Positions 1,311 through 29,200 of a stretch of 64,000 nt of DNA are shown here, in pieces. Within the stretch, counting starts at the first letter, position 1, and each line of letters begins with the position of its first letter. The stretch is from Blasia pusilla (taxonomy: Eukaryota), in assembly GCA_050084515.1 (NCBI GenBank), contig CM114271.1, forward strand, positions 3,472,001 through 3,536,000. The letters run 5' to 3'. The notes below the pieces were generated by a model that had not been told where the DNA came from, searched no databases, and was given only the letters and a program-made list of their open reading frames with translations. The position numbers and the translations under genes are program-made.

Positions 1311-2323
1311 TGTCGTGCGCCTACTCTCCTTGAACGTTAATCTTGTTTGTTGCGGAAGCGTGCGTTCAGTAGGTCACGCTCTCAACGCTGATCTGCATCC
1401 AAACACACACTTTGGTTAGTCGGGTCTTGGATCAATCAGCGGGGTTACTTTGCGAGTTCTCGTCTCGGACTCTCATCAAGCTGAACCTTCCTAGTTTCGC
1501 GGTTTACAACACGGGAAAATCTCGAAAGACTTGGGACAGACTTTCTGGTCGGTTCAAGACGCCTAGCGGTTCCAACTGTCCGATGGACATCCAAAGAGTT
1601 CCTCACCAAGACTCGCACGAAGTGAATCTCGGGTTGGGATCCAAGTGTGGCGTACAAAGTCCACTCCCTTGGATCAGGTTTGGGTTTCGGGTTTCCGCGC
1701 CAAACTCCCGTTCCATCCCGTGCCTCTGAAACGCCGTTTGGCGCCCAAAGTGGGGTTTCGTTTCCCGAGACATCTCGGAGAAGGTCCTCCCTTACTAGTA
1801 CTTCTGGGGATCTCCGAGGTCCCCCTACATTTAGGGAAAGACACCCGGGCCTCTCCAATTGGCCCTCAACCCGATTGCTCTCTCAATCGTTTTCGGCCAA
1901 TATCTCAGCCTGTACTTATGCGTTTGCTGAGATCTTTGATGCGTTGGAAGCGTCTCAAGATCAGCTTTCCAATGCGCCCTTACTTGTCTCAAATGCATCT
2001 TGGAGCTTAACGTTATGGTCCTAAACACAGTCAGATTCTCCCAAACGCTAGTCGTGTTCCAAACTGGTTCTCACCTCTTTGGCAACCAACCTCCCAAGAC
2101 TCAACTCATCTCAAGTCTCGGCTCGCGTTTGGTCTAGGTTTCCTGGTCGCGACCACTAACGCATGAAACACACAACTCTATTCCGCGTTTCGTCTCTTAG
2201 ACTTTTCCAAGAGACTCTTCCAAACGCCTCTTCAAAGCGCAAACCTCGCAACGTGAGTTCCTTTGAGTTCTGATGTTTCGCTTGGCGCCTATTTGGTGTT
2301 TTTTGGTTATGAGGGTCGCGACA
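1311..2323 (-). repeat. 3' LTR of a minus-strand Ty3/Gypsy (chromovirus-type) element
   Basis: TG..CA ends (tgtcgtgcg...tcgcgaca). Reverse-complement homology along its length to the LTR at 22092-23014. A PPT lies on the internal side. Confidence 0.9.
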
Positions 2324-2336
2324 CTTACCCCTCCTT
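2324..2336 (-). promoter_or_regulatory. Polypurine tract of the minus-strand Gypsy element
   Basis: Minus strand reads AAGGAGGGGTAAG directly before the TG of the LTR. Confidence 0.8.
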
Positions 2337-3016
2337 AGATGGTTGATGTCCTCATCAACGCAAACTTTATGAATGTTAAGTTTTGGGAAGCCGACCCCTT
2401 AACACTGAATCGCGTTCTGGTAGCTAACCCGCAATTCCTCTTTTGGCTTAAGTCTTAGGTTGTCGCTTGCAGCACTTAGACTTATTAGCTTCTTCTTTCC
2501 GATGAGCCTAGACTAGTTCTGCTGAACTAATCTAACTATCAAAATATGCTCACTGAGTCTGCAACCTAACACTTCACTCACTATTTGTAAACAACCGCCT
2601 GTCTACCTAGCCAACTCGTACTATTTTTGGGTCACTTGTACTCCATCTAGGCGCGTCACTAAGTTCAGTCATGCAACATGAATGAGATCACCACAAACCC
2701 CAAGACAGACTCATCTGCCCCGCCGACGTTAGGGCGAGCTCAAATGCTAGTACTTCAACACTTGGTCCTGATCTAGATGCCTTATCTGAATACAAGCTCT
2801 CACCTTAAATACTCATTGTTTGGTCTCCTTGACTTACATCCTAAGCATATGAAGAACTACCCATTGCCTTGCACAAACCAAACTCAAAATTACAATACAA
2901 GCATCGAATCTCCAAATCCATGTCTTCTTTATTGCAACAACTAAACATTTCTAGTTATAACGGGTTATCGGCCCAAGCTTTCCGGTCACAAGTTATGTCC
3001 ATTGCTTCACCATGTA

Positions 3017-3120
3017 CTAACGCACGTGCCTTTCTTGCATCCATCTGAAGTCACGCAATGCTTCTTGCGCATGTTCTAGATCCGCCTCCGCAATCCAAGT
3101 CGCCTCTTTCACATGATAGC
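3017..3120 (-). pseudogene. C-terminal half of the integrase chromodomain, truncated by the element starting at 3121
   Basis: (G)YHVKEATWIAEADLEHAQEALRDF matches the chromodomain pattern GY...ExTW.pE..L..a.e.l..F. It sits at the pol 3' end, upstream of the PPT and LTR. Confidence 0.75.
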
Positions 3121-3465
3121 TGTCATGACCATACGGATTATGTCGTAGAGTATGGTGTGCTGGTAGAGGCCATTCCTTATGTAGGACCGTAGTGGCTTGG
3201 TAGAGATGCGGTTCCATCCATAGGGTTGGGGGTTACTCACTTGGGGGTGACTTTCCCAGTAGGGCCCGCTCTTAGGTTGGAGGATATAAGGTGGCTTGCC
3301 CTCAAAGAACAGTCAGTTCTTTGAGTTGAGCTATGCGTTGGGAGTTAGCCTTGGTAGTGAGTAGAGCTCTTGGCTATGGTGTTTCCCGCAAGCTTTGACC
3401 TAGATTCTCCCATCGTGGAGTGGATTTGGCTCGATTGTATGTGATTGTAAACGTGTTTTATGACA
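3121..3465 (+). repeat. Putative 5' LTR (345 bp) of the DNMT-Gypsy element
   Basis: Begins tgtcatga exactly at the break in the chromodomain and ends ttatgaca (imperfect terminal inverted repeat, TG..CA). Contains TATAA at 3285-3289 and Inr-like TCAGTT at 3313-3318. No second copy in the window to confirm the bounds. Confidence 0.65.
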
Positions 3466-5088
3466 GTAGGTCTTTCACGGATTTCACTCAAAGAACTGGA
3501 GTAGATCGATGGTAGCTTCGATTGTAGATCAGTAGGATCTGGTTAGGGCTGATTGTGTACTCAGCCGTGGATGTTCGTGGCTTGTGGCCTATGTTGGAGG
3601 TGTGAATCTGATGAGCGGTTGGTTGGGAAAGAAGCGCCTTGCTGAGAGCTTTCCAACGCGCTGTAGATCGCCGGATTTCGTCAAGGGAGTTGGAAGTTAT
3701 CAAGCATTGAAGATTCTGGTCGTGTTCGACAGTTTTCTGATGTGGAGAGCTTGGAGTGCGGAAGCTCTGTTGAAGTTCATCCAGATCGGGTGAGAGGTTC
3801 CTATTGCTACTTGTATTGTGATCTCATGTAAAGCTATCTGCTCGATTCCGTGGAGCGTTGCGGATTTCTGCGTGCATGAAACTTGGCGGAAGCGCTGTCG
3901 GATTTGCGCTTCTAGAGGTGTATGGACAGCAAGTTTGTCTGATTTTTAGCTCGGAGTACGGAGCTTGGTTGTAGCTGAGTTTTTGTGGGGAGATAGCTAT
4001 GGTGGTCAGTTGAATTCTGATCGAAATAGATTTGATTTCGGTCACGTATTTGTGAAGTAATTTCTGATCGAAATTTCGCGGACTAGCTCAAGGTCTGGCT
4101 ATGGTGGACAGCGGATCGGAGGGGCTGGTTGGTTGGTGACTCGTTCAAATTTGGAGACGCCTATCCCGTTGGGGGCGCCTTGGTTGGACCTCTCTCCATA
4201 GCGAAGCATGGCGAAGCGTGGCGAACGGGGCATGTCTCGAGCATTTCTCGGCGTTTCGAGGCAACTCGAGGCAACTCGTGGTAGCTCGGGGCAAGTGGGC
4301 GTGAGAGGCGGAGTAAGGAGCAAGGAGCAAGCAAGCAAGCTTGCTTGCTTGCTTGGGCGTGAGGCAATTTTTGCAGGATTTAGGATTTGAGTTTTGCATA
4401 AGTGGTCACCCATCTTTGGGCTATTCTGCCTGGAGGACGCTTAACTGCTGAGTTCTTAACTATGCCCGGTGTCTGTTGTTGTAGCTCATTTGGTGCTGTT
4501 CGGAGAGGTGTTAGGCACTTTATGCATCTTAGGTTTTTGGTTGATGTACCTCTAGCGCATAGTACGGTGTAGCCTCTCCATGCAGGTGATATTTTCAGGT
4601 GGTGCGTTCGACTAGCACGTCATCGACCCGCGGCGGAGTAGCTATTGCATTAGAATTATGTGGTGGGTTTTGTGGATTCAGAGGGCACCACGTTTGGTGG
4701 ATTGTGTTACCTTGATTTCCATTTGCGATTGGAGGGTTGTCGTTGGATTTCCTGTGTTTGGATCCCCTCCATTGTGCTTCTTGCTTGCGCGCCCATTGTT
4801 AGGGTTGACGCTGATTTCCAGAGTAGTGTTACTCCTGTGTGCTACCGGTAGTGAGGCTGGAGGGATGACGAGTAGATTGTGGGAGACTTCTTGTGGTGAT
4901 GACAAGTTAGGTTGCCTACACCCATAGCTAGTAGAGCTAGAATAGTATAGCAACATCGACGTCACTTGGTAATTTGGTGGTGGTGCAGCATCGGCGTTGG
5001 TCATCACGGAGTTGTCGGGTGGTCTGGTTGGGGACCGTGGTGCAGACAGTGGTGGTTTCACACAAAGTGGATTTAGGTATCGCTACCT

Positions 5089-6437
5089 TTGCCACTTCCG
5101 ACGGTTGATGAAGAGGAGGACGAGGGTGTTCCAAACACCGAGTCTTCTACGTTGTTATCGAGTGTTGCAGCTCCATTGATTTGGGATATGGACGGTGGAT
5201 ATGGGGCCATGAAGGGCCCACGACGATACTCGGGTGCAGTGGGTACCATTGAGTTGGAGGACTTCATGCAGGAGTTTGATACGTGGTGTGATATGCGATG
5301 ATGTATGAACGCCACGTTGTTTACACCCTTCTTGGCTTGGAAGGGTTGTTTCAAAGACTTGGAAGGACCACCCATGGATGATTACCATGAGTTTAGGAAG
5401 GACCATGTTCTTTGAGATTGAGGCATGGAGACAATATTGGTCTCCAGGCTATGTGTCTATCACCCATGGTGGTATTGGTAGTAGTGCTCCTACTATGCGA
5501 GCCAGCCCGACGTTGAGTGGTACGAGTACGAGCCGGAGTGGGGGTACCAGTGGAGGTACTAGTGCCCCACCATCGTTTCGCCCGGTTGCAGAGTTCTTCA
5601 AGAGGTTGAAGAAGAACTATCAAGGAGTGAAGACAGAGAAGTTGAGGAATCTTCAGGACTTTGAGCGAAAGACTGGTGAGAGTCTTTGTGAGGCATACAC
5701 GCAGCGTATCGACGATTGATTTCAGATTACCAGGGTGTGAGTGAGGATCGGCGAGTCCGTTTTGGTACGGGATCTTGGGGCAGAGATTTGCGCCGAGGGT
5801 ACGTGATGCTACTCTTATGAGTGATGATTCACCCACATTGACCCATGTGTTTGCTTTATCTGAGAAGATTGAGCTTAACATGGTGAAGGAGAGAGTGGTG
5901 ACATCCGCATTCAGTAGGGATACAACTACTTCTTCTCGTGTTCAGCCGCCCACCTCACAGTCTCGTAGTAGTGGTGGTGGTAGTAGTAGTGGGAGTCGTG
6001 GGGGGTACACGCGACCTCAGTCAAGTCCTAGAGGGACATTTGTGCAGAGACCATTGCCTTCATTTGCTGCCCCGCAGCAAGGAGAGTTATGTTGGACATG
6101 TGGAGGTGATCATGTTAGGAAGTTTTGTCCCCAAGAGGATGGGAGACGGACTTTGGAGGATGGGCCTCAGTCGGCCCCAACTCAGTGTGATCATTGTGGG
6201 AGACTAGGTCATCCTCCAGAGCGTTGCTTTGATCTTCATCCACAGTTGAGATCAGGCCGTGGCCGTGGTGGAGTAGCTCCGAGAGGCCGAGGTGGTAGAG
6301 GTGGTAGGGGTGGTAGAGGTGGACCAGTGGTTGGAGAGCCTACGGTGGCTACCCCCACCTCTACGACAAGTCGCCTATGGCTGCCGAGATTGAGCAGTTG
6401 GAGCAGAGTTGGCTACTATGGTGGTATCCAAAGATAG
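5089..6437 (+). pseudogene. gag: gag of the DNMT-Gypsy element (frameshifted)
   Basis: Capsid-like segments (PRRYSG..ELEDFMQEFDTWCD; KLRNLQDFERKTGESLCEAY), zinc knuckles CWTCGGDHVRKFC and CDHCGRLGHPPERC, and an RGG-rich tail. Confidence 0.8.
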
Positions 6438-7104
6438 ATCAGGTTCGGGAGCAGGGCTTCCACCTCTTATGGAGGGGATGATCTCTCTTATATGGCGAAA
6501 GTGCAAAGACAAAAGTTGAGGCATCACTGCGATTTGAGAGGAGCCACTGAGCGTCGAGCCACGTGGTGCTCTTGTGGAGTTGGACCCACAGAGGGGTGAG
6601 GTGGGGAGGCGAGCTAGGCTTCCCGATTATTCTTGTTGTCCGAGGTGCTTAGGACTCCATCCATGGTTCCCACGCAGCCTATTGAGCCAAAGTGGGGATC
6701 GAGGCATCTACATCGCGTGTAGTAGACACGGATGCAAAGATCAATGCAGATTGTGCGGATGGCAACTTCAAAGTGTTGGGATCCCCATTGTTTTCGCCAC
6801 GGAGTCGATGGCTTTAGGAGTTGACTTAGCTCTCAGATTTGATTAGCGACCACATTGTGTGAACGTGGGGTATTCTTGCTATACGTGTTGAGGTGGATGA
6901 GGGTGTTGCGGTGGAGCGACCCTCTATGTCGAGTAGCATTGAGTACCGGTGCTACTTGGCGGCAAAGAAAGCGGCGAAGATGGATGCATTACCGGCCCGC
7001 CAGCCATTGATCGTGAGAGGCTTACACCTGGTGTATGTATGTTGGACAACCGAGTGGGATCTTCTGATTGGTGAGTCCTACTGGGGGAGGTGTATAGACC
7101 GGAT

Positions 7105-7365
7105 AGAGTCTTGTTAGACTTTGGTGCCCAACCTTTGATGTTGGGAAAGCGGCATGTATTGGTTTGGGTATTCGGAGGTCGAGCTTGAGCCTTGCCCATT
7201 CGATTCAAACATCACTTGGAGGAGCCAATGATAGGTCTCAATTCATGACACGGGAGAAGTTTTTCTGCAGTTGAGACTAGATCATGCGGCCCGATAGCTC
7301 CCGGTTGGGAGTATCTCATGTAGTCACATCAGCCGAGTCGTATGATGTACTAGTTGGAGGAGCAA
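7105..7365 (+). pseudogene. Aspartic protease remnant
   Basis: RVLLDFGAQPLMLG (D-S/T-G motif, plausibly TCT>TTT) and a downstream SYDVLVGG motif, in the expected position after gag. Confidence 0.65.
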
Positions 7366-7826
7366 AGATTGTACCCGATGGGGTTTCAGATGGATTCTTT
7401 GGGTGAGACAGCGTCTTATAGACCAGGTTGGCATCCGAGGATGGACGTATGAGCCAAGTTCTGTGAGATTTATTTCGGGGCTCAACCAGAGGGTCTTCCC
7501 CAAATGGTGTTAGCATCTGTGGCTGGTTTTAGTGGAGTAGTCACTTGGCCAGGAGACTTTTTGGAGGGTAATGTTTCTGCTATGGATTCTCCTGCGCATG
7601 AGGAGGAAGAGGAGGTCCCTATTTTTGCAGCAGTGGCATCCTCATCGTTGGATGTGCCACTTTGGAGTTCACGCGATGCACTACGGCAGGAGGCTGATCG
7701 CCTAGTGCAGGAGGCTTGGTGTGGTTATACCTCACGAGGAAGAGGAGGCCCCAGGCGGACTCTATTTCTGGCCGATTGTTATCCCCTTTGGATACTACAC
7801 CTATTGTATGGCAGTATCCGCCGGAG

Positions 7827-8775
7827 GGCATTTGTGTGTTAGATCTCTTTGGTGGGATTAGCACTGGTTTGGCTGCAGTGTTGCAGGCCGGTATTCCTGT
7901 GCGGAGATACGTGTATGTAGAGCGAGATGAGACGGCCCAGAGAGTCTCATCCCGACATATTGGTCAGTTGATGCGGAGATATCCTGAGTTGTTGCCGCCA
8001 TCAGCTATTCGTGGGTACCAGCGTGCTTTACCATCACACATTGCATTGTTGGGGGCGCAGGACCTTGAGAGAATTGGTCTTGTGGATTTGGTGATTGCTG
8101 GATGGCCATGTTAGGGTCATACACGTGCTGGTCGTGGTGAGGGATTACATGACCCTAGGTCTCGATTGTTTTGGGAGATGTTACGGGTGTTACGACATCT
8201 TCAGGTTCATCAAGCACGTGCTCTAGCTAACATTCTGGAGAATGTTCCATTGTTGGGTGACACTCGGACCCGGATGATGGCGAGTGTTCATGAGGTGCGC
8301 TCTTGGATTGGACCAGCGGTGTTGTTGGATGCAGCACGAGTTGGCTCGCGTGCACATCGTCCACGCTTGTGGTGGACAAACTTGTTGCCTAGGGAGGTTC
8401 TACGTCGAGCATATGATGCAGTGCAGCGGGATCCTCGCCTTACAGTGGATAGTATCTTGGATACTGGGCGACTTTCTCAAGTGGTGAGGATTATTGATCG
8501 GTCACCCATGGCAGTGGTGAACCGTGTGGGCCAGCCTAGGATGGCACTACCCACATTTGTGAGTTTTCCCGCGTCACATGCCTACGAGGAAGGTGGTCGG
8601 GGCTTGTATGGGATTCTCATGTGCGGCGATTGGTGGAGCCTAACGCTGATGAGAGAGAGCGTGCGATGGGATTTACTATTTGGCGTGTGGCGGTTGCTTC
8701 TATTTTCGAGGCTTCACGACGTCATGTGTTGGGTCAGGCCATGGACCTGAATTGTTTGACTTGGATTTTGAGTCT
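7827..8775 (+). pseudogene. DNMT3-like C5 cytosine DNA methyltransferase domain within pol (one stop, one frameshift)
   Basis: Motif I GICVLDLFGGISTGLAAVLQAGIPV; motif II YVYVERD; motif IV DLVIAGWPC*GHTRAG (catalytic PC at 8106-8111); LHDPRSRLFWEMLRVL; motif VI ILENVP; motif VIII RAHRPRLWWTNL; motifs IX/X ERERAMGF..SRRHVLGQAMD. Confidence 0.92.
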
Positions 8776-9149
8776 TGGTATGGCCGAGCAGCGTCGACTT
8801 CGGACTATGTCTGTGGGTCTTCCACCCCTTGTAATGAGCTCGATGGCTACCGGGACGGTAGAGGCATCGGCTGGGGGCGAGGAGAGTAGTATTTTGCATC
8901 CTTGGAGTAAATGGGATGTAATGGCTGGGCATGTGGAGTTGGTTGCTCATCTTTGGTGGAGGAGTTATTTGCTCAGATGATGATGTAGCTAAGGGTGTAT
9001 CATCTTGTGAGGGGGTTGCGTAGCAGCCAATGGCATCGTCCTCTCCCTCTAGTATGCCAGTGGAGGAGACTTGGGAGCCATTACTTGGGCCCAAGCTTAC
9101 GGGAGGTGAGAAACGACGCTTGACATAGTTCCTACGTGCTTATAGGAGT

Positions 9150-10500
9150 TGTTTTGCCTTTAGCATGAAGGAGTTGGGTTCTCTGGTTGGACCCGGTATA
9201 CGGATTGATTTGGCTAGTGATACGCCAATCTTCCGTCGTCCCTACCGATATAGTGATATGGAGAGGGATCTGATTCAGAGTAGGACGTTGGACCTTTTGG
9301 AGGCTGGATTAGTGGAGTTGTCGCATGGAGAGTATGCATCACCACATGTCATGCTGCTAAAAGGATATGCATGGCAACTACACGGATAGGCGGATGTGTG
9401 GAGATTACCGCCCTATCAATTGGCAAACCAAGGCCGATAGGTATGCCATGCCTACACTGATGAGATCTTTGATGTGATGGGACAGCAAAGATTTTCAGTA
9501 CTTTGGATCTTGAGGAGGATACCATCAATTGCCGATTCGGGAGAGTGACAAGGCCAAGACAAAGCATTTTGGGGTGTCAACTCTCATGGCAAGGATTGTT
9601 TGTACGGTGGAAATTCTTACCCTTTGGGTTGAAGAATGCACCTGCCGAGTTTCAAAGAGTGATGGACAGGATCCTAGCAGGGTTGGATTTTGTTCGGTGT
9701 TACATTGATGATATCTTGGTGTTCAGTAACACGGTGGAGGAGCATCAGATACATTTGCAGATGGTGTTTGAGGGGTTGAAAGCTCATGGTCTACGTTTGC
9801 ATCCGGAAAGTGTAAGTTCTTCCATGAGGATGTTGAGTACTTGGGTCATGTGATCTATCCAGGTGGTTTGGGAGTTCAGCAAGCAAAGGTGGAGGCTATT
9901 GCACTTATTCCGCGTCCGGTAGATGTGAGTAGAGTTCGAGCATTCATGGGATTGGCGAACTACTATCGGAGGTATGTGAAGGATTTAGTGCTATGGCAAA
10001 GCCTTTGAACCAATTGCTGAAATCAGATCAAGAGTGGCACCTGGGGAGATGATCGGAGAGAGAGCTTTTGTGGAGCTTAAGGCCAGTTGGTGGCGGCGCC
10101 TATCTTGAGGAGACCTATCAAAGGCGCCCATTTCAGATTACACACGATTGGAGTAGGTTGGGACTTGGAGCGGTGTTGACACAACATGATGATGAGCACA
10201 TGGAGTTTGTGGTGGCCTATGCAAGTCGTTCGAGTAATGCAAATGGAGTCGCTATAGTTCATATGAGGGAGAGTGCTTGGCAAGTAGTGTGGGTTGTGGC
10301 ACACTTTAGGTGTTACTTGTTTGGCACACAATTTACCCTTGTTCTTGCGATCACCGGCCGCTCAAGTGGTTGATGGAATCGGACAAGCTTACAGGAAGCT
10401 TGCACGATGGGCTCTTATCTTACAGGAGTATGACTTCCAGGTGGTACATAGACCTGGAGTTGCCAACCTTGATGCTGATGGGTTGAGTAGGAATCCATGT
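9150..10500 (+). pseudogene. pol: Reverse transcriptase and RNase H of the DNMT-Gypsy element
   Basis: PIFRRPYRYS, RMCGDYRPIN, LPFGLKNAPAEFQRVMD, RCYIDDILVFS, HDWSRLGLGAVL, VVAYASRS, ARWALILQEYDFQVVHRPGVANLDADGLSR. Confidence 0.93.
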
Positions 10501-10859
10501 ACTAGCCAAGAGGATACAACTGGGGCTAGATGGCATAGCGAGGTTGATGAGGAGATGGTGCCAGGTTGGCATGCATCCGCCTTTTTATGTTGGTTAGGGG
10601 TGGACTCTAGTATGGAGGACCACATGATATCTTACTCTAGTCAGAGGGTAGATGGCCAGCCTTCAGATTCTAAGGTTGGAGATGGTGGTACGGATCAGCG
10701 TGATATTCATGATGATGCGTTGGTGTTGGAGTTTCTACGGACCAGTAGGGTGCCACGCATAGTGAGTGCCAAGGAGCGAGACCGTGTTCTTCAACGTGCT
10801 AAGAGGTATCGATTGGAGGGAACACATATTCTCCACATGTGGGAGGATGGTAGAGTACG

Positions 10860-11940
10860 AGTAGTGCCACATTTGGCTCAGAGAGAGCGCATTGTGCGAC
10901 ATGCCCATGAGGAGTTGGGACATTTTGGGGTAAAGCATACGTATAGCTTACTCCTTGGCCAGTATTAATGGCGTGGCATGCATACTCAGGTGCAGCAGTT
11001 GGTGTCACGTTGTATGGTTTGTGACCGGGTGAGGGCATCATTTAATGCCCCTACACCACAATTACACCCCTTGCCTATTATGGGGTTGGGTTACCGTTGG
11101 AGTGTGGACTTTGCAGGACCTTTACCATTGATGCGTCATAATCGATATGTGTTGGTGATGGTTGAGCATTTTTCCAAGTGGATTGAGTTGGTGGCATTAC
11201 CTGACAAAGCTAGTGAGGAACGGCGTATGCGTTTGGATAGAGTGCTTAGTCATTTTGGTGCACCGGTGAAGTTGACCGACCAGTCTGAGTTTGTGGTGAG
11301 TTTCAGGTCTTGTGTGACAAGGCGTTGATTGATCATCGGACCACGTCTCGAGATCATCCGAGGCGGATGGTTTGGTGGCGTGTGGTTCAGGCGGTGAAGA
11401 GGGCATTGCGCAAGTATGGCCTCTGAAGGGCATCTTGAGACTAGGATATTCAGTTGCCATGGTTAGCCATGGGGTATAGGTTCGATCGCCAAGCATCCTT
11501 GGCATCTTTCTCACCTTATTTTTACATTATACGGCCGAGATCCGGACTTGCCAAAGACAAGAATTCGGGAGTCTAGTGAGGTGGTGGACCTTGATGACCC
11601 AGAGATGTGGATGAGGGTGTGTTCTCAGCGGGCGGAGCTCTTTCAGAGAGTTATGCCAACAACCTTTGAGAATCTTGCCATTGCTCAACACAGGGATACG
11701 TTGCGGTATGCAACCATTCGGGATGGAGGTTATCGACCATCGATTCGTAGGTTCCATGTGGGGGACTATGTCTATTTGCAGCAGATTGCCCCGACAACGT
11801 TGGATGTGACGGCATGCCGCACTATTTTACGAGTGCGTGAGGTGTTAGCTTCTGGAGTTCTCATGTTGGAGGGTCGTGATGGAGTTGTTTGGAAAGATCA
11901 TGTGCGTAATTGTGCGCCATGTCATCTTCCAAATGTGGAT
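10860..11940 (+). pseudogene. Integrase of the DNMT-Gypsy element
   Basis: HHCC zinc finger (HAHEELGHFG...CMVCDR), WSVDFAGPLP, YVLVMVEHFSKWIE, LTD core, and RFHVGDYVYL. Confidence 0.9.
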
Positions 11941-11979
11941 GGTACTGTTGACCCAAGCTTAGCCATGATACGTGCTAGC

Positions 11980-12126
11980 TTGAGGTGCATGTTGTGTGGG
12001 TCTGCTAGTAACGCATCCCGTATGTTGGTGTGTGATCGGTGTTCTAGGGGTTGGCACATGATGTGTTTGACTCCACGTTTGGATGTTGTTCCTACTGGAA
12101 GGTGGGTTTGTCCTCGATGTACTTAG
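11980..12126 (+). CDS. PHD finger (C4HC3) at the integrase C-terminus, intact
   Basis: RCMLCGSASNASRMLVCDRCSRGWHMMCLTPRLDVVPTGRWVCPRCT*, in frame with the integrase tail (ORF 11548-12126). Confidence 0.92.
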   Translation: MRCMLCGSASNASRMLVCDRCSRGWHMMCLTPRLDVVPTGRWVCPRCT

Positions 12127-13731
12127 GAGAGGTAGATGACTTGATTTTTGCATGATATGGATTACTGATGTGCGACTAACGATGGGGCAACCTAGCACCC
12201 GGCCTTCTGATTCGGGCACCCAAGAAGGTGTATAGCATGTAGTAGATGTATAGGGCTACCTGGGAGTTAGAGATGACACTGCTGCTACTGCCGCACCGGT
12301 CGTGACATGCCGCTGCCCACACTCGCCGTTGCTCCTCTGCTTGTCCTGGTTTCGGAGCACTGTGGATCTTCGCTTTTGATGGCGAGCAGGAAGGAAGATT
12401 CCCCAGCATGTGCGCTGTCCCCAACATGCGCTGCTGCTGGTGGGAGGAAGCGAGGAAGCACACAGGACGACGATCAATGTATCTCTCTCTCGGTCTGCCG
12501 ACTCTGTTCGTTTGTGTCGAGGTTGACTACCGTGACAACAGAGCGTTGTGACAACACGTGAAAGACCACTGTTGTGGCGTTACTGCGGCAGAGCGAAGAG
12601 AGAAAGAAAGAAAGAAAGAATTAAAACGCTCTACACGAGAGCGGGGAGATGTTAGTGGGGATGGATTCGAGGAGGACGGGGCCGTAGGAGTCATCACTTG
12701 CTCGCTCCGCATTCCTTCCTTCCTTCCTTCCTTCGCTCGCTCGCTCCGGCGTCCGCTAGATCTCCGGAGGATGGAGGAATGGAATGGAAGTAAAGTTGTT
12801 GTTTTTTCCTCTCTGGAATCCGGATCTCTCGCGGGTTACGGTGTACTCCTTGGACCTGGGAATCTCCCACGCGCGCAGTGACAAGAGGATGAGGGTCAGT
12901 TTACTGAGGCACTGGAAGTCCCACGCACGTCCAAGAGGCGAGCAGCGAATTCATCCGGAGAACTACGGGGGCGAATCATGGGGCAGCCAGGTGCCAGACA
13001 CGACATGGTGGTTCCGTTCCGAGAGCTCTCGAGAGTCGAGTGACATGAGGCGCAGGGTCAAATGCAAATGAATGGGAGAGCGTGGATTCATTCTAGAGAG
13101 AAGCAGAGATCACGCTGACGAGATTAGGTGGATCGATGGTGCAAGTCAAGAACCTGACTGTAGCAGCTACAGTCCGGATGGTTTTTTCAGGACTCCGCTA
13201 CAGTCAGGTCCATGACTTGCTCGAACACAGACAGGGCATACGATATCATGCGGGAAAACTCACGGCTTGGAGTGTCAACAATCGCTCCTGAGTAGTAGTA
13301 GTAGTAGTAGTAGTAAATAATAATAATAACCACCCGCCTGAGGAGGTTGATCAGTTCAGTTTTACTCTACTCTCTGGCTGGCTCTAGCACTGACAGACAG
13401 TCTTAGCTTTTCTCAAGTGAAAGCCGAAGAAGCCTTCTTCGGCGTCTCCATTCCGTTCCGGTCATCTTCGCTTCGCTTCTTCTTGGAGCGTCGGAGCGGG
13501 ACTCGCCGACATGTCTGCAGCACAGAAGAGGAAGGGGTCGTCGTTTATTTATTTATTCATTCATTATCGGAAGCTCCTCTCTGAGAGTCTGAGGGCGTAT
13601 CATACGCAAGAGACATTGCAAGTCCAGTCCAGTCCAGTGACTGGAGTCACTGCGATTGGCGACTAGCCCGCCAAGTCTTGAGTCTTGAGTCGTGACTCGT
13701 GAGTCGGGGGCATGGAATTTGTACGAATCCG

Positions 13732-13817
13732 GGTGTTGCGCCATTCAATAATGGTGTTTTGTCTCCTCTCATCAGGTGTTGCGCCATTCAATAATGGTGT
13801 TTTGTCTCCTCTCATCA
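13732..13817. repeat. Perfect 43-bp tandem duplication
   Basis: ggtgttgcgccattcaataatggtgttttgtctcctctcatca x2. Confidence 0.95.
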
Positions 13818-15552
13818 GAACCTCTTGTCGATGGCAGACGAGTCCCATGCGCCCAAGTAGCCTGTACCGCATTCACGTATGTTCGGGTATGCTGCGAGTA
13901 TACTAGTTGCCCATGAGATGGGGAGGTGGCTGCTGCTGCTAATGCCCCAGCTGGAGTCAGCAGTGATTCCTCCCTCCTGTTCACCATAGCCACCTTAGCT
14001 TCCGCTCTTTTCTTTTCCACTCTCTCAGGATAACTTCGAGAGTTCCGTCCCATTCTAGGCCTACACTGCAGTACTGCTCTGGATAACCCTAGAAATATGG
14101 GATGTTCGATGAATCAAAACATGAAAATAAAAAGCTAGCCACGTTTTCGAGTAGCTTAAGACCTAGTGCGGCAGATAGGACAATCATAGCCAGGCTTTCT
14201 TGCATTCTTCCATATCCATGACCGAGAGAGTTCCGTCTAAATCGAGACCTACTGCAGAGAGTCAGTCAGACAGTCAGTCAGTGCACTAGAGAACTCGCGA
14301 GACGCAGAATGTTCAACAAGTCCAAACACATTAGCCAGACCTCATTATCGAGTGCCTTCCGAGACGTCCGATTCATGTTCGGCTGCACCGCGAACGACGA
14401 GGACTCCTCTCTTCCTCGCGTCATTTCACTCTCTTATCGCAACTGCGAGCGTTCCCCGGTTCAAGGCGTGATGTAGCGTGCAAATGCAGGAAGCTGAAAT
14501 AAGCCGAAGTCTCGAGCACCGACACTTCCAATTCGAAGCATTTTTCCTACGGACTTGCATCGGAAGGAAACCCTAGGGAAGCACGATGTTCTCATCTGTC
14601 GCGTAAGTACCTGATTATTACTCCAGAAGTTGCTGCTCTCTGGGAAAACTGAAGTGTGTCAGATCAGCGCCACTGCAGCAAGTCCAGACAAGCATGTTCG
14701 TTCCGGCCTCGCTCCCTCGCTCGCTTTTACGGAGCTATTTCGTGCGCTGCACTGTGCTCGTCGTACTTGTCACATGTGTGTGTCACTCGATTCACATATT
14801 CATTCCAAATTCACGCGCAAAAGTTACTCACCCGCTCTCCTCCTGCTCCTCCTCCTCCTTACCATCTCCTCCATCTCTTTCTACCTGGCTCCTCCGCTCG
14901 CTCGTACATCGCATGACATCCGACGATGCTTTAGATTCGTCACCGTCTGACAACAAGTGCCCGTACGACCTTCATCTTTTACATGGCTTCCCTGTTGCAC
15001 GCACGACATGCTCGATTGATTCCCTGTCTAATCTACACAGACGGCGCATGCGTCTTTGCCCGTAGTTGCTTAGACAATGTTGTCATCACCGTGTGGTCAA
15101 AACAGAAAGGGAGTCAATTTTGACTCGGGGCTTAGAAATGCTCCTCCAATGCCGAGAAACACCAAGGGAATCTAAAAGTCCACTGGAGCATCCATCCCAC
15201 ATCTTTTGCATGTTCCATGGAAGCAGCCAGTGAGTGGTTTTCTCTTTCGGTCAGTTTGTTTGTTTGTTTGTTGCTGTGTTGTTTTGTTTTGGGCGTTTGG
15301 TTGCTTTCAATCCGTCTGATCGATCGCGTTTGGGTCGCTTCGAATGTGTTTGCGATGACCTGATGCGATGGGGCTTTAGGATCGTGTTCTTGTGACGGGA
15401 AAGCCCTTCGCAAGCTTTAAAATCGTCCGTGGTCAAAACGTGTCACTCCTGCTCTCAGAAGCCATTGTGATGATGCTGAGAGGTGTCATGTTGTTGGAGC
15501 CGCCCCCCAAACACGAGAACATCTCGCTCGCTCGCCCCCGAACTCTTTCTTC

Positions 15553-15654
15553 CTCTCTCTCTCTCTCTATCTATCCAGCCTCTCCACGTGTCCTACCCTT
15601 CTCTCTCTCTCTCGCTCTCTATCTATCCAGCCTCTCCACGTGTCCTACCCTTCT
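15553..15654. repeat. ~50-bp tandem duplication of a (CT)n plus CACGTG unit
   Basis: ctctctatctatccagcctctccacgtgtcctacccttctc occurs twice in tandem. Confidence 0.85.
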
Positions 15655-15884
15655 CAAAGTATCGCACAGTGGTTTCCTTTCCCGTATAGATCGCGGGGAG
15701 TCTTGCGAGTTCCGAGTCGTGACTGGGCGTATGGTTCGCGCACCGTAGGCCCGCTCAGAAACCGGTGCGGCCCCTTTGAGAGGGGAAGAAAGTTTCACAC
15801 ATACTAGAAGAAGATTGGGTGAGTACACGTGGGTAGCAAGTATGAACCGAAAACTGCAGTTGTATATGTAGAGGAGGAAATGAA

Positions 15885-18760
15885 TATAAACTTTAATAGA
15901 AGCTTGGATGGAAAACCCGTCGGGATACAAACGAGGGGGGCATAGAGAGCCAAAAAACCCATCGGGCCAAAACCGGCCTTGAAGAGAGAGGAGGGGGCCT
16001 CCCCCCCACCGACCAAAATCACTAAGAACAGAGACAATATCAACAACACCTAGAGAACTATGGCTACTACTAAGTGGGCCTCTAGCATTGGCGTCTCCAA
16101 TTGCATGAGCCCGTCGCAAAAGCCCATTTGTTTGGGCACGCTGCAAAGCTATGGAGACCCGTTGCCTACAAGAAAGTATCGCAGTGGCTAAGGCAACCCA
16201 TTTCTCGACTAGAGATGATGGGGGAAATCCGTAAGGAACGAGTCAAACCTCTCCCCCATAGCCCCGTACATCTCAATGACTAGGGGGATAAATCCATGTC
16301 CGTCTAGAAGTCGACTATAAATGTGGGTCTTCTTTACCGCCGCCGCCGCTCCTTGTAGCAATCTCCCTTGTGCCACCACTTGGGCTCGCATCGCCTCACG
16401 TGTAGGATCCGTCACTACAACATCCACTACCACCACCTCAGACTCTCGTGTCATGTAGAGATCAACACGGATAAGTGAATCCTGCATGGAGTTGTGCCTC
16501 TCTGTGCACATGGAAGCCACTCTCCCGAGAAATAGGGAACATAATATCCCCCACTGCATCGTGAATGGCTATCCTAATTGGACACTGTGCCAAGTGCACA
16601 CCAAGTGGATCTAGACTCCGGCGACACTCGCAATGTTTCAAACCAATAACCGATGGTTGGGGGAGACCCAGTCAGAACCGCAACGCTGTAGAGTAGGTAA
16701 GTGGTGCGATGCGAAAAGCCACGATGAGGGGATGAGCCCCTATCCATGAGCCTTCCCCCTTTCCGGAGCAAGAGCGAATACGCGCCCTAATCTCCATGGG
16801 GATATTCCCATCCGACATAGTAGCTCTGAACAATGCATCAAAGTGGGCTTCCATCAAAGAAGATTGGAGCCCAGACTGTCCGGAGCTAACTAGGGAAGAG
16901 AAAGTGGGAAGAACTGCCCTAGCCTCAACAAGAAGGGAGTCTCTACAAGCTCTGAGTGAAGACTGAAGTGGGAAAAGACCACCCTCGACCTGGGAAACGT
17001 ATTATAAAAGTAGAGGTCTATCCCTAACCAAAAATTGGGAGCAAAGGAGGGATGCTACACTGGCCCAACTCCCTAAAAAAGCCAAAGATGCCACTAACTG
17101 AGTCGCTATAAGACCTACTTCACCAAAGGCAATCGGCCAAGAAGCCTGTCTACGAGCTAACTCCCCCGCGGGGCACTCTAAGGAGTCGGGTCCTAGAAGA
17201 TCCCCAAATGCCTGCATGATCTTTCTATCAAAGGATCTATACAAGGAAGAAATATGGCTAGACGCGCACACGATTATACACAGATAACCAGGTCTACGAG
17301 CGAAACATGACGAGAGGATGCCGTAGGCTACTTGAGGGTCACCAATCCTCGTGAGATCGTGGATGTGGAAAAGATCCTCGGTCAGAGACGCCGCCACAAA
17401 ACTCGATACAAAGTCTTGGCTCTCGAGTGGGACTCCCAAGATGCGAAGCCCTCCAATAGGTGTCAAAAAACTGTTGGGTAAATGAATATCAGCCGGCAAG
17501 CTTGATGGAGACCAAGCCTTGCACTTTCCCACCTTCATTGCGAGGCCGACACATGCCAAATATGTTGAAAAGTGCTGAAATGCAGAATAACCAAGTCTCC
17601 AGGGCCAACAATATGAGTATCATCTGCCAACAAAGGGAAAATGCAACCTAGGAAAGGCTCCACCGTAGAAAGAACCGCTCGATAATGAGCCAAAGCAAAC
17701 AATGCACCACCCAAGGGATCACCTTGACAAGTCCCGGTAGCAGACTCCAAAACCGTGACCTCCTCCTCGAACCCACCGTGGCAAAAATAGAGGGCCAAAG
17801 GGGCCCCATAGAAAGCCTGCACGAAGGGAATCAGGCTCACAATAGGATCCCTACATCTCTCAACTCCAAGAAGATAGCTACCCGAGACACTGAGTTGAAG
17901 GCGTTCTCCACATCAACTTGGAGAACCACCCACTCAAGATGTATATCCAGACAAGCCCTCAAACCTAAGGCTACAGTCTCACAACCAGCTAGTGTGGCAA
18001 CTCTGAACTGGTGCAGACTTAGATGTGACTGGAAAGCCTCACGGAATTGCAAAGCGATAGTGCGACTCACCAACCGCAAGAGCGCCTCACCTATGGCGAT
18101 TGGACGGATCCCTCCACCCTCCTTCGACAACGCCAAAAGTTGCCCCGCCCCCAATACTTGGGCCACTATTGTTGGCAATCTCCCTTGAGCTAGGTGAGAG
18201 GTAACCTAAAGCAACTCGGAAAAGCCGCTAGCAGAGTCCTGGGGGGGAAAGAAATCACGAAGGTGTTCGTACATCATACCGGACAAGCCTCCGGCTGCTA
18301 TCCTAGGGGAACGCCCGAGTGCCCGTGCAAAGAGGGACAGGTCTAGGCATAAAGCCATGCTAGGATGGAAGTCACGTACAAAAGTTGGAATGTCAACTGC
18401 TGGATGAGGATGTAGCCTCCGGAGGGCGTCGATGGTAAGAGCGGAAGGAGGAGCCATGTCCATAGGGCGGAGCGCACGAGTCGCTCGCAAGTGCTCCCCA
18501 CCTCGTCCAAGTGTCCTACATCGTTGCAACGTGATTGCTACAAGATCATCCGCTGGGAAACCAAGTGAAGTTCTACCTCTACCATATGCCACGAACTCGC
18601 TCTGCAGAGACTCCCAATCGCCTCCTTGAAAGCGCCGCAATCGGGCCACAACCTCTCTATGGCCAGCCTTCCCTCCCCGGGTATAACGAAGACACCATTG
18701 TGGAAGGAGAAGTAGTAGATACCATGAGAGCTCATCGAGGATCAAGTGCGATCCGAGAAG
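15885..18760 (-). mobile_element. CRE-like non-LTR retrotransposon (RT plus restriction-like endonuclease), 5'-truncated and decayed; copy 1
   Basis: GIRPIAIGEALLRLV, VLQVDVENAFNSVSR, QGDPLGGALFAL, LADDTHIVG, LRILGVPL, and C-terminal RVDLY..VVVDVVVTDP..K...Y..FIPLVIEMYGAMG. The ~200-bp 3' UTR is shared with 35390-35590. Confidence 0.85.
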
Positions 18761-18947
18761 GAGAGAAACTCAATGGAGGGTGGAGTACACGTGGATATGC
18801 TATATGAACCGCAGTTAAATGTAGAGGCCGTAATGAAATGGACTCGAGAGAGGCATGAATCCACGTGCGGAAAGGAATCCCCTCCATGTAAGGGCTCTTC
18901 AGAATCGCATGCAAAGCAGGAGACGAGTTTCACATGCCCTTCCAAGG

Positions 18948-19180
18948 AGGCGGACTCAGGCGGTTGGAGATGACAATGATAGAGGCCCACTTAGTAGTAG
19001 CCATAGTTCTCTGGGTGTTGTTGATATTGTCTCCACTGTTGATGAGTTTGGTTGATAGGGGGGTAAAGGCCCCCTTCTTTCTTTTCAGGGCCGGTTTTGG
19101 CCCGCGGGTTTTTGGTTCTCTACCCCCCCTTTTGTATTCTAATGGGTTTTCCATCAAACTTTTTTTATTGAAGTTTATCA
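18948..19180 (+). mobile_element. Short 3'-end fragment of the same CRE-like family, inverted relative to copy 1
   Basis: tagaggcccacttagtagtagccatagttctct...gggttttccatc...aagtttat matches the reverse complement of 15885-16110 and matches 35390-35590. Confidence 0.85.
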
Positions 19181-22091
19181 TTCAAATCTGGGGAAAAGTG
19201 TTGTGAACATCTCCTAATGCACATGGCGAGAGGAAGTGCACTCCTCTCTCTCGAAGGAGGAGATGATGCGGTGGACAATAGAATACTCGAGAATGGATTC
19301 ACACCCTGTACATTGTAAGAGATGCGAAACATCATCTCTTTTGAAGTTGGATCTTGATTTTAGATAGAGTTGCTTGAAACAAATTGTAAGAACCTTTATG
19401 GGTCGATTATCTAAGATCGAGACTTCTATTTCCATAGACATTGCATAATACTTGGGGTTGCTATAGCATTCAAAATGCTAGAGTCCAGGTAGTCGTTACG
19501 GAAACCTCCAAGAGTGCTTGTACATAGGAAATGCTCGTGACTAGAGTTACAAAATAAAACTAGAGCAAGTGTAGAGAGGGCATAAAGAAGAATCCAAAAG
19601 TTGGGTAAAACCCAATCTATATTATTATGGGAGAGTGTCCTTATAGGGGTGTTATGTCTCCTGATGACATGGCACCCCCATTCTTTTTGACATGTAGGTA
19701 ATTGATATGTGTCTTTCCTATAAGTTCCTCTCCATCGCATGAGCTTGGTCTTCTTGAGCTCTCTTTCACCTGTGTTGAGCACATGTGAAAGAGAGCACCG
19801 GCACCAGCTAGTAATTAACAACACGGAAACTTTGGAGATGAGATAGCAGCACCTAAAGGTGGGCAAAACCCATGCAATTTACTCATAAATCTATCTAGGC
19901 TTACTTCGCCATGTTGGATTGATCTTTAAGACATTTGTGAATCTATCTTTTTTAGATTGGTGGGATGTGAATGACTAAGGCTACAATTCTTTTATTTTTT
20001 GCATGATTATTTAGAAAATTTATCCATCTCTTTTATGATTTAATGCGTAGGGATGATTATAGTAAAGATTTCTATCACCGTCCACAAGGGAAGCCAAAAA
20101 TTGGGAGGTATGTAACAACATATTATGGGGGTAGTGAAGTCTAATTAAGCTTTTCATTCCCGCCTAGAATATTTTGAGGAGGCATGGAACTATCTTCATA
20201 GTATTAGTGGAATTTTCTTCTAATGGTCGTTATTTAAATCCTTTCTTGGAATAAAATTTTGGAGATGGATAAGTCTAATTTTTCATTGCTAGGTAGAATA
20301 TTTTGACACATGAAACTTGTAGATTTAGGTGATAAAACTTAGAAATGTATTTGATGAGGCAAAAATGAGGCGGAGTTTGTATTATCATGACATAACAACT
20401 TCTTGATTTACAAACATACGTTTGATTCAAGACTTGTAAATTTAATCATGATCTATTCTATTCACGGCATGCACTATACATTAGTATTTATGGATGAAAG
20501 AGGGGGCAATATATAGTCTTAATATAGGTGAGATTCTAATGCTACGAGCAAAGAAAAACATTTGACTCTACATCTATGAAATTAGAGGCAGATATATCAT
20601 GGTGTGTCCCATTAGAGAGCAATTTGCGAACATCATATGCTATATTGAATACATCCATAAAAATATGTGTCTTTGTAGTCAGTTTGTTTTTAAAAAATAT
20701 GCATTTATCTCTTTTGTACATATTTTTGGCCTCCAACATAACTTCTTTGTTGAATCATAATGCACCAATAACATGTGCACAGAAGTCACCTAAACCTAAA
20801 TATGTCATTCTTTGACATATCATTATACTTAAAAATGTTGTGCAAAAATGGGTGCCCCCGGATATGTCTGCAGATGTGACATCCAACTCCTACACAAGAG
20901 TCTTTATGGAACCCAAGTCACTCTGAGGACTTAGTGGGTGGCGGAGGGGGCGGGGTAGACGTGGATCGAAAGGAAGGCGTGGAGGGCAAAGGGGAGGGAA
21001 TGCACAGAGGGGCGGGTGATAGTGGGAAGGGTACGGGGAGAGCCGGGGAGTGAGAGGGCAAGAGGAATGGAAGGAAAAGGAGAGATTAGGGTGGTTGTAT
21101 TAAAAGATAATATCAATGTTGCTTGCTTATCGAGGTTAGCATATTGATCTTCCTTGTTCCTAGTGAGCTTCCAAGGTTGCTATTGGAAAATTAATTGAAA
21201 ATATATGTTGTTATTTGCATTTATTTTATGGATCCATAAATATGATTATCGTGTCCATTGAATCATTATGAATTACCCCAATATTTCTTGGGTGGAATTT
21301 GTATTTCATTTTAGTGATGACCAAAGCCAAAGAACTCTAATAAATTGTGATGGAGTATTAGGAACAGGTACATGTGGATAATGAAACATCAAGCATAAGG
21401 CACCACAAGTATTAGTCCTAGGCATTGACAACGTATCATAACGAGAGAGGCAAAAGAAAAGAGATGGGAATGTGGATATCCATCATGCAAACCTGTATGT
21501 GAAGCTAAGGTCTCTCCTAAATTGAAACCTAGCTTTAAATCATACTTAGAGTTTAGTGGTTTTCCATGTCTAAGGTAATGACAGATAGATCCAAGACGTA
21601 TTTGTGATGAATAAAGTGGAGATCAAAAGCTTGTGATAATGAGAACATGGTGTATAGGTAGTAACAATACAGAAAAAAAAAAGAAAAAATTCTTTAAATT
21701 GTAGAAATAATAGTTTGGATTGAGGGTCACAAGGACCAGCCCAAGAGGGATTCTTTTGTAGAAGGAGATGCCCCATATGTTTAGAACCTTAATAGGGGAA
21801 GATTTTATGAGAGAGCTTAAAGCCTAAACCCCAAATTGGGATTCATGTGGCTTGAATCGAGGACATACGTGACAAGAAGGACTGTAGGATTCGCGTTCAA
21901 GTTTTGACACCAAATTTTGGATCCTAGATTTGGACTCTAACCAAGGGCACATATATTTGAGTACGAGTTAGAGAGTCGTTCAACATCCATGGAACAAGCA
22001 CTCGCACCTCAATCATTTTAAGTCTCTACATTATCAAGGAAATTTGTCCTCATTTTTGAATAACTTGCTTATGGTGGGAAAATGGGGATTG

Positions 22092-26000: not shown

Positions 26001-26632
26001 GTATTCATCGATAACATATTTCTCAAGTATTTTGAGATCCACAATCACGTAACACCAAAGCAATTGCAATGGCATGATACCTTGGTGTTGACGAATGTGG
26101 AGCTAATCCATAAGTCGGGGAAAGACAATGTCATTCTAGATGGGTTAAGTCGCAGGGATGAGCATATGCCATCGACGACACAAGTATCGAGAGCAATGTT
26201 CCCTAATGAAACTAACCTGGAAAGAAGGATTCGTGAAGGATACATGAAGGATACGCAGGCAAGTGAGTACCTTGGGAAGTTGAAACGGGGTGAGAAGGTG
26301 GCCAATCTAAGTTTGAGGCACGGCTTGCTAAGGTTTAAGCAGAGCAGGATCTATGTGGGCCAAGGCAAACTACGGACCAAAGTGTTTGTGGAATGTCATG
26401 ATGGACCTTTGGCATGAAACAAAGGGGAGAAATCCACTCTTAATATTTTGGCCAAGAGGTTCTTCTGGCCCAACATGAAGGAAGATGTTGCTCAATATGT
26501 GAAGACCTGCGTGACCTGTCAGGCGAACAGAGTTTCTTATGCGAAGAAGCAAGGCTTCCTTCGTCCTTTTCCGATCCGAGAGGGACCCTTGCAAAGCATT
26601 AGCATGGATTTCATTATGAGTCTTCTGGAATC

Positions 26633-28800: not shown

Positions 28801-29048
28801 TGAAATGAAACAAATATGACATGGAAGCGCCACGAAACTGCAGAAAACTAATTACCGCAAAGCTCGCCTGAAAGTATCCGGTAACTTAACGTGGAGCCGG
28901 TCCCCTCCGCTGCAGGCGGTCGGGGGACAAGAAAGCCGGCCCCCTCCAAACTGGGGGCCCATCGCGAGCGAAAGAAGAAGTTGGGTAGGGTGCCAATCAG
29001 TCTAAAACATAACAGTACAATAGTTAATGTTCTTCCCACGCTACTCCA

Positions 29049-29200
29049 GTCTAGCCTAGCCTAGTCTAGCCTAGCCTAGTCTAGCCTAGCCTAGCCTAGT
29101 CTAGTCTAGTCTAGTCTAGTCTAGTCTAGTCTAGTCTAGTCTAGTCTAGTCTAGCAGGACCCAAACTATCCTAGCCTAGCTTAGCTTAGTCTAGTCTAGT
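29049..29200. repeat. (CTAGT/CTAGC)n pentanucleotide microsatellite
   Basis: Seen directly in the sequence. Confidence 0.95.

Follow-up and report, generated by a model that had tools for sequence, protein, structure and literature searches.

The window, a 64,000-nucleotide stretch of Blasia pusilla DNA, holds a decayed LTR retrotransposon of the Ty3/Gypsy type that belongs to the 'Gypsy-DNMT3' lineage of streptophytes and in which a PHD finger follows directly on the C-terminal domain of the integrase. This finger is not a one-off but a fixed C-terminal module of the integrase of this lineage, and it may serve active family members as a tether to the tail of histone H3.

On the plus strand, the domains of the element follow one another in the order gag, DNMT3-like methyltransferase (DNMT), reverse transcriptase (RT), RNase H, integrase and PHD (Table 1), and the succession of RT, RNase H and integrase typical of Ty3/Gypsy pol is present (Pfam and tblastn). 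An intact metagenomic polyprotein of 2358 aa (P0240) is collinear with the element from its residue 355 to the PHD at residue 2345. In tblastn searches, residues 355-418 of this protein match 6048-6254 in the gag region, for which Pfam returned no match at E ≤ 0.01; the RT region is matched by P0240 as well as by P0182, and the zinc-binding and core parts of the integrase are collinear with the integrases of both. The Pfam matches to Integrase_H2C2 (E 1.2e-4) and to rve (E 8.8e-6) remain under the curated cut-offs in the decayed copy.

Table 1. Positions of the retrotransposon domains within the window
Feature	Position	Strand	Basis and state
Gag-like region with two CCHC zinc knuckles, CWTCGGDHVRKFC and CDHCGRLGHPPERC	5309..6437	+	Seen in translations; frames broken
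DNMT3-like C5 cytosine methyltransferase domain	7764..8932	+	Translation, solved-structure matches, collinearity with P0240 residues 928-1312
Reverse transcriptase	9069..9805	+	Broken frames; RVT_1 E 1.9e-18 on ORF 9473-9853 (Pfam)
RNase H	9948..10453	+	Broken frames; RT_RNaseH_2 E 2.4e-14 and RT_RNaseH E 2e-13 on ORF 10053-10373 (Pfam)
Integrase zinc-binding (H2C2) domain and catalytic core	10876..11376	+	Broken by a stop and a frame change
Integrase C-terminal region	11521..11985	+	Long helix, SH3-like beta domain, conserved APCHLP linker motif
C4HC3 PHD finger	11986..12123	+	Last ligand one residue ahead of stop 12124-12126

From 7764 to 12123, translation and tblastn reveal no fewer than 10 changes of reading frame in addition to in-frame stops, and because pol is broken in this way the copy must be considered a dead, functionless fossil. 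Neither an LTR pair nor a target-site duplication was found around the element (3000-15000; repeat search with two settings and blastn self-comparison with word size 9), and a second search for LTRs with word size 7 and a C-to-T-collapsed alphabet yielded only low-complexity matches. Since the copy is decayed and possibly truncated, the absence of LTRs says nothing on the family. Ten flanking ORFs (1445-19878) gave zero Pfam matches. The original prediction had this copy inside two nested older TEs, for which the flanking ORFs and the repeat searches furnished neither support nor contradiction. G exceeds C on the plus strand across roughly 3500-13000 (skew about +0.25), and two further retroelement RTs are situated in the element's neighbourhood.

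The finger resides at the end of an open frame of 219 aa (11467-12126). The original prediction had flagged 11548-12126, the plus-strand translation of which ends ...CMLCGSASNASRMLVCDRCSRGWHMMCLTPRLDVVPTGRWVCPRCT*; the flagged part ahead of the finger proper, 11548-11985, is the integrase C-terminal domain. The claim of an intact C4HC3 PHD holds: the quoted string was reproduced exactly, and Pfam assigns the last 46 residues of the open frame to PF00628 (E 4.6e-11, 43 bits versus a curated cut-off of 24). All zinc ligands (C174, C177, C189, C192, H197, C200, C215 and C218) are present in the window copy and a cross-brace PHD fold is predicted by AF2 with a pLDDT of 93-96 over residues 173-219. 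A chance motif or a prokaryotic reading was ruled out by the Pfam score and by ligand conservation in relatives. That the finger 'terminates pol' is correct by homology, the window being collinear with P0240 up to the PHD, but pol is not a single ORF here. In the first loop of the finger (ORF residues 181-183) the window copy has S/N/A where the family majority has D/D/E, and due to this change of the acidic loop the window copy is unusable for a binding assay.

The finger had further been proposed to occupy the position that the chromodomain has in chromoviruses, and AF2, Foldseek and a profile match agree in placing it directly after an SH3-like integrase C-terminal domain. The AF2 model of the 219-aa ORF (alignment of 37 sequences, mean pLDDT 80) consists of a long helix (residues 45-85), an SH3-like beta domain with strands between residues 101 and 151, a low-confidence linker and then the PHD. 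Ahead of the finger, the family profile aligns with 7q5b, a structure of Ty3 Gag-Pol (E 1.1e-12). With the whole model, the best Foldseek matches are the Tudor-PHD cassettes of PHF1, MTF2 and UHRF1, at high rmsd. Within the linker, C152 is kept in 199/199 and H153 in 184/199 relatives. Chromoviruses likewise carry a small histone-reader domain right behind the integrase C-terminal domain, with a presumed role in integration targeting; for the chromodomain at the integrase C-terminus of Ty3/Gypsy chromoviruses, PMC6673714 and a bioRxiv paper on chromatin evolution refer to Gao et al. 2008. There, the domain is a chromo barrel, whereas the window element bears a zinc-binding PHD and Pfam finds no chromodomain in it. 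The ligands probably differ as well, the unmodified N-terminus of H3 being the likely one for the PHD, to judge from its sequence, as opposed to H3K9me for the chromovirus chromodomain. In the window's clade the PHD is 2-15 residues away from the end of the protein. More than 100 further residues trail it in 211/309 relatives, and the term 'terminal reader' is therefore valid for the window's clade only; an intact metagenomic element (L008) continues for about 400 residues beyond the PHD, in which there is no Pfam family.

Searched exhaustively with HMMER, the 219-aa ORF matches 5627 cluster representatives at E ≤ 1e-3, of which 277 reached E ≤ 1e-30. The closest named relatives are two gene models of Marchantia polymorpha (84% and 81% identity) and a protein of Calypogeia fissa (78%), which by themselves point to a liverwort host, and the lineage comprises hundreds of 50%-identity clusters across chlorophytes, one charophyte and liverworts. 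In 199 of the 232 fetched proteins the alignment spans query residues ≤ 60 to ≥ 215, and among these 199 the ligands are almost invariant (C174, C177 and C189 in 198 each, C192 in 197, H197 in 199, C200 in 198, C215 in 199, C218 in 194). The strict C4HC3 pattern occurs in 297/309 full-length modules among all proteins fetched. As the presence of a PHD among the matches of PHD-seeded searches is given by construction, only a PHD-free control is unbiased. This was performed with residues 1290-1575 of the Klebsormidium protein discussed below and collected 275 proteins at E ≤ 1e-20, of which 120 were listed; PF00628 is part of the precomputed Pfam annotation in 112 of those 120. Out of the eight listed proteins without it, four end before or within the finger, three diverge ahead of it and one has a variant finger. 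Conservation of the PHD among relatives, the lack of which had been named as a possible refutation of the original prediction, is thus borne out with a seed free of PHD.

The second component of the original prediction, a DNMT3-like writer in the same element, was also recovered. Motif I (VLDLFGG), the P-C dipeptide, ENV and a C-terminal RERAMGF...LGQAMD are discernible, and with the stop read as X the best solved match is DNMT3A (E 7.6e-11), followed by DNMT3B, DNMT3C and plant DRM2. The domain is damaged by an in-frame stop right after the catalytic P-C dipeptide and by at least one frameshift (translation and tblastn). With the DNMT of KFL_009030040 from Klebsormidium nitens, which likewise lies upstream of the RT, it shares 43% identity (E 4e-41), and on these grounds the window element is a relative of a published family: excerpts of de Mendoza et al. 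2018 (PMC5890265) describe a protein of the KFL_009030040 type as KnitGypsy-Dnmt3, a Gypsy pol with a DNMT3-like domain upstream of the RT just as in the window. In the Klebsormidium copies intact catalytic motifs and purifying selection are reported, whereas the DNMT motifs of the window are not intact. The integrase C-terminus of KFL_009030040 is 49% identical to that of the window element. Both Klebsormidium proteins retrieved break off ahead of the finger, one stopping 8 residues past the position equivalent to query residue 130, but P0235, a metagenomic relative with 81% identity, has it. The same source, in the parts consulted, gives KnitGypsy-Dnmt3 a DIRS-like repeat layout, which repeat searches did not find around the window element.

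Small HMMs, based on the DNMT of the window and on RT, RNase H and integrase sequences taken from an intact relative, served to classify 328 fetched proteins. The DNMT was located between RNase H and integrase with certainty in 93 and probably in 28, while it stands upstream of the RT, as in the window, in 8. No DNMT was found between RNase H and integrase in 44 proteins, in most of which an upstream DNMT is possible because the sequences start only 100-200 residues before the RT; in 5 the DNMT is present in an undecidable position, and 150 were too short for classification. Co-occurrence of PHD and DNMT across related Gypsy elements, which the original prediction had put up for examination, hence recurs throughout the lineage, with the DNMT in two positions within pol. 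A FastTree phylogeny of integrase core, C-terminus and PHD (217 rows; midpoint root, local supports and a caution regarding long branches) contains a clade of 49 rows, with an SH-like support of 100, in which the window element stands together with the liverwort proteins, the Klebsormidium protein and every one of the 7 DNMT-before-RT proteins that the tree includes. A single member of this clade was classified as 'probable' for a DNMT located between RNase H and integrase, namely a Marchantia gene model pieced together from fragments of DNMT and integrase. Outside of this clade the RNase H-DNMT-integrase type predominates. Several small subclades have no DNMT between RNase H and integrase, and 6 changes on the tree are needed to account for its presence or absence at this place. 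A query of metagenome contigs with one of the proteins (P0002) identified 21 loci at 38-55% identity; three of these with long flanks, none of them the protein's own contig, are all of the RNase H-DNMT-integrase type. Direct repeats were not found in the metagenomic loci L004, L007 and L008. The DNMT of the window scores 135-210 bits against four closer DNMT-before-RT relatives and about 63 against two long-branch ones, a median of 145 bits against 88 DNMTs located between RNase H and integrase, and 45 bits against human DNMT3A. By sequence, these scores are consistent with a single TE-borne DNMT family that shifted its position within pol.

What would such a finger recognize? Among the best 60 solved matches in the sequence search are CHD4 PHD1/2, MLL3, ATXR5 (E 5e-14 over 50 residues), DPF2/3, KMT2D, KDM5A/B, PHF12 and WSTF and, further on, PHF21A, BAZ2A/B, KAT6A and UHRF1, and the best 60 of a search with the family profile include the same set plus AIRE; neither ING, BPTF or TAF3-type readers nor ADD entries appear among the best 60 of either search. 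In Foldseek comparisons of the predicted model, the ATXR5 PHD in complex with H3 (5vab) reaches a TM score of 0.86, normalised to the target, with 46% identity, and the BAZ2A PHD superposes with an rmsd of 1.1-1.2 Å. Fold matches titled as complexes with unmodified H3 are BAZ2A (4q6f), UHRF1 (3zvy and 3t6r) and ATXR5-H3 (5vab). Taken together, the unmodified-H3 readers ATXR5, BAZ2A, UHRF1, DPF2/3, MOZ, CHD4, KDM5A/B PHD1, PHF21A and AIRE are 32-46% identical to the finger at an rmsd of 0.9-3 Å and have the spacing C-x2-C...C-D-x-C...G-[WYF]-H-x2-C-L...P-x-G-x-W-x-C-P-x-C in common with it, with the difference that they sit on host chromatin proteins and the finger of the window on an integrase. 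Readers of H3K4me3 possess a cage tryptophan two residues ahead of the zinc histidine; the corresponding residue in the Gypsy finger, G195, is a glycine kept in 184/199 relatives. In unmodified-H3 readers acidic residues contact R2/K4, and D190 is kept in 188/199 relatives. AIRE and BHC80 also have acidic residues ahead of the first cysteine. The original guess at an unmodified-H3-reader subtype is accordingly supported as far as the nearest solved PHDs by sequence and by predicted fold are concerned, but not by the residues before the first cysteine, which are non-acidic in the window copy. All in all, the solved PHDs that the finger resembles most are ones in complex with unmodified H3 tails, and the assignment to this subtype fits by way of resemblance. 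Specificity is not fixed by similarity among PHD fingers.

RNA of the family was found in three runs of raw RNA-seq reads, the species label of which is that of the best-matching DNA reads. Aligned at a likeness of at least 85%, 4270, 4048 and 4613 reads per run were collected. Coverage extends from gag to the PHD and climbs towards the 3' end, from 15-50 at 5300-5530 to 151-202 at 11768-11998, with the depth peaking over the PHD. Over 11768-11998 the first mate maps to the minus strand at 151-202 and to the plus strand at 2-17, which makes the RNA sense, provided that the libraries were prepared by the common stranded protocol. Most reads differ from the window copy at many sites, and in RT and RNase H some of these are changes in length by a single letter. 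Since just 74-122 reads per run (119, 74 and 122) are at least 99% alike, it is sister copies that are transcribed, and the window copy weakly at most. In one form of the RNA 10663-11654 is skipped, so that the integrase C-terminus and the PHD follow directly on sequence from further upstream.

As the explanation of the whole we lean, if only modestly, towards an integrase-borne PHD that acts as an H3-tail-reading tether in the Gypsy-DNMT3 lineage. In active family members, the PHD would tether the integrase or the pre-integration complex to nucleosomes by way of the unmodified N-terminus of histone H3 (H3K4me0/R2me0), and insertion would be biased away from H3K4-methylated promoters. Histone binding, the mark read and the effects on integration or on the DNMT are what we infer here.

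Host DNMT3 reads H3K4me0 through its ADD domain. In line with the coupling of reader and writer in the original prediction, the finger might act as a stand-in for this domain and serve mainly the methyltransferase of the element, which would then be recruited to or released on H3K4-unmethylated nucleosomes; such a role is compatible with tethering and appears to us rather unlikely. It would agree with the recurrence of the arrangements RT-RNase H-DNMT-integrase-PHD and DNMT-RT-RNase H-integrase-PHD counted above, with the immediate neighbourhood of DNMT and integrase-PHD in the former, with Pfam scans of polyproteins, which showed no further domain accompanying the DNMT, and with the two Marchantia gene models nearest to the window, both of which combine DNMT fragments and the PHD module. 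In the window's clade, however, RT and RNase H stand between the DNMT and integrase-PHD, so that ordinary polyprotein processing would yield separate proteins. Furthermore, fusion with the integrase is constant for the PHD, whereas the DNMT changes its place and in several small subclades is missing from between RNase H and integrase, which points to the integrase as the partner of the PHD.

Tethering through the H3 tail has also to be weighed against binding of the finger to some other target, for which a host protein, a histone mark or variant of a different kind or the DNA ends of the element itself come into question. We judge this to be fairly unlikely. The specificity of PHD fingers is poorly readable from sequence, and ATXR5, the nearest plant match, is an enzyme that discriminates between H3 variants. 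Moreover, PMC5861402 describes a PHD-like cross-brace finger of a transposase that binds DNA sequence-specifically, namely the cysteine-rich domain with which the piggyBac transposase binds its own DNA ends. On the other hand, the finger of the window is 40-46% identical to canonical histone-reading PHDs, on which its predicted model superposes at 0.9-3 Å, and the 60 best matches of each sequence search are free of DNA-binding fingers.

A more far-reaching proposal would see in PHD and DNMT3-like domain a reader and a writer that a very large Gypsy lineage of Viridiplantae has inherited together from its ancestor, in which the PHD replaces the ADD domain missing from the captured DNMT3, the DNMT moved at least once while the PHD remained fixed, and the element imposes 'stealth' silencing upon itself. 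We regard it as decidedly unlikely; if it were true, the element would pick H3K4-unmethylated chromatin and lay down cytosine methylation there itself. Finally, that the 219-aa ORF is a host gene or exon domesticated from the element is very improbable indeed: although it is among the longest open frames remaining in the element, similar stretches are labelled as genes in Marchantia annotations (P0176 and P0177) and the RNA form that skips 10663-11654 joins upstream sequence to it, the ORF is collinear with the remainder of the decayed pol, the Marchantia models are stitched together from pieces of DNMT and integrase, the RNA spans the element from gag on and thus extends beyond the ORF, and the acidic loop has decayed.

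REM1 of Chlamydomonas is, by way of papers citing it, reportedly a PHD-bearing retrotransposon. Passages of PMC6673714 and PMC8557442 describe PHD fingers as widespread or common in retrotransposons, CR1 LINEs being likewise PHD-bearing according to excerpts, and a survey of PHD-TE fusions, as far as excerpted, reports co-occurrence of PHD with RT and integrase domains (bioRxiv 10.1101/2021.11.30.470311). For Gypsy-7a_cRei of Chlamydomonas a figure legend of PMC9940879 lists a PHD ahead of the integrase, in contrast to the window element, where it follows the integrase. Gypsy-DNMT3 elements of streptophytes are treated in passages of PMC5890265 and bioRxiv 10.64898/2026.05.21.726589, the latter of which also mentions LTR elements that pair methyltransferases with chromodomains. 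The term 'PHD' has 0 occurrences in the main text of PMC5890265, as distinct from its figures and supplements, and the excerpts of published accounts of PHD-bearing retrotransposons neither link the PHD to a DNMT nor give it a reader subtype. In the openly searchable literature, as distinct from subscription journals, figures and supplements, neither a PHD-DNMT3 pairing nor a tested ligand of a retrotransposon PHD was found. Retrotransposon PHDs and Gypsy-DNMT3 elements have thus each been published already (PMC6673714, PMC8557442, PMC9940879, PMC5890265). What goes beyond the readable literature is that the integrase-PHD is fixed throughout the lineage, that it resembles unmodified-H3 readers and that the DNMT occurs in two positions within pol.

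Chromoviruses are the textbook retrotransposons that read chromatin in order to choose their landing site. The Gypsy-DNMT3 lineage would represent a second, independent case of a chromatin reader on an integrase, here a PHD that, to judge from its relatives of known structure, is probably one for the unmodified H3 tail. The PHD adds context that is missing from the main-text discussion of published Gypsy-DNMT3 work, and the lineage could be used to test how a transposon joins the decision of 'where to land' with that of 'how to be marked'.

Comparison of protein relatives with the window revealed that the DNMT3-like domain occupies two different sites within one and the same integrase-PHD lineage. 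The order RNase H-DNMT-integrase is found in the majority of relatives (e.g. P0020, P0026 and P0034), among them the named chlorophyte proteins, while the domain resides upstream of the reverse transcriptase (RT) in a clade that comprises sequences from Klebsormidium and liverworts as well as the window itself (examples are P0231, P0077, P0122 and P0240, an intact metagenomic polyprotein of 2358 residues). The DNMTs of the two position types are much more similar to each other than either is to human DNMT3A.

The PHD finger is not the terminal domain in most relatives, as more than 100 residues follow it in 211 of 309 cases. In the related intact metagenomic locus L008 (5631-11756), which has the RNase H-DNMT-integrase order, about 400 residues are present C-terminal to the PHD finger, and a Pfam scan assigned no family to them. 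The upstream open frame of this locus (1908 aa) is likewise devoid of a Pfam match. A conserved C-A-P-C-H-L-P motif (Table) is excluded from the Pfam PHD match. Among 199 relatives, none lacks its cysteine C152, and 184 retain H153 (numbering according to the 219-aa open frame); the motif could provide an extra metal site or a contact site.

All three RNA runs contained a form that lacks 990 bases (window 10663-11654), with nine other letters in their place, such that sequence 5' of the integrase core is joined to the integrase C-terminus and the PHD finger. This form is represented by 16, 27 and 40 reads, respectively, and did not occur in contigs from the single DNA run compared. It could stem from a deletion-derivative copy or be a processed transcript. 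The element is furthermore characterized by a strong compositional bias of the plus strand along its entire length (window ~3500-13000; GC skew about +0.25, T exceeding A), which ends at the element edges and may reflect a native trait of the family or strand-biased decay.

Features of the element and its surroundings (window positions)
Feature	Position	Strand	Remarks
C-A-P-C-H-L-P motif	11911-11931		ORF residues 149-155; between SH3-like domain and PHD
Tandem duplication, 43 bp x2	13732-13817		exact or near-exact; downstream of element
Tandem duplication, 52 bp x2	15547-15650		exact or near-exact; downstream of element
Inverted repeat pair, ~235 bp	15881-16113 and 18951-19184		80% identity; flanks 3-kb stretch
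Second Gypsy-type RT plus integrase remnant	25093-25779, 26466-26735	+, +	unrelated to element; RT: Pfam RVT_1, E 5e-26
209-bp-period repeat	26629-27555		four tandem copies; overlaps preceding feature
(CTAGY)n microsatellite	29021-29220		after the two preceding features
Copia-type RT	44536-45315	-	Pfam RVT_2, E 1e-26; in AT-rich half of window

The stretch bracketed by the inverted repeats may represent a further mobile element; the minus-strand open reading frames inside the bracket matched no Pfam family. Since positions 20000-64000 harbor only six open frames of at least 170 aa, the element resides in a neighborhood that is rich in transposable elements and poor in genes.
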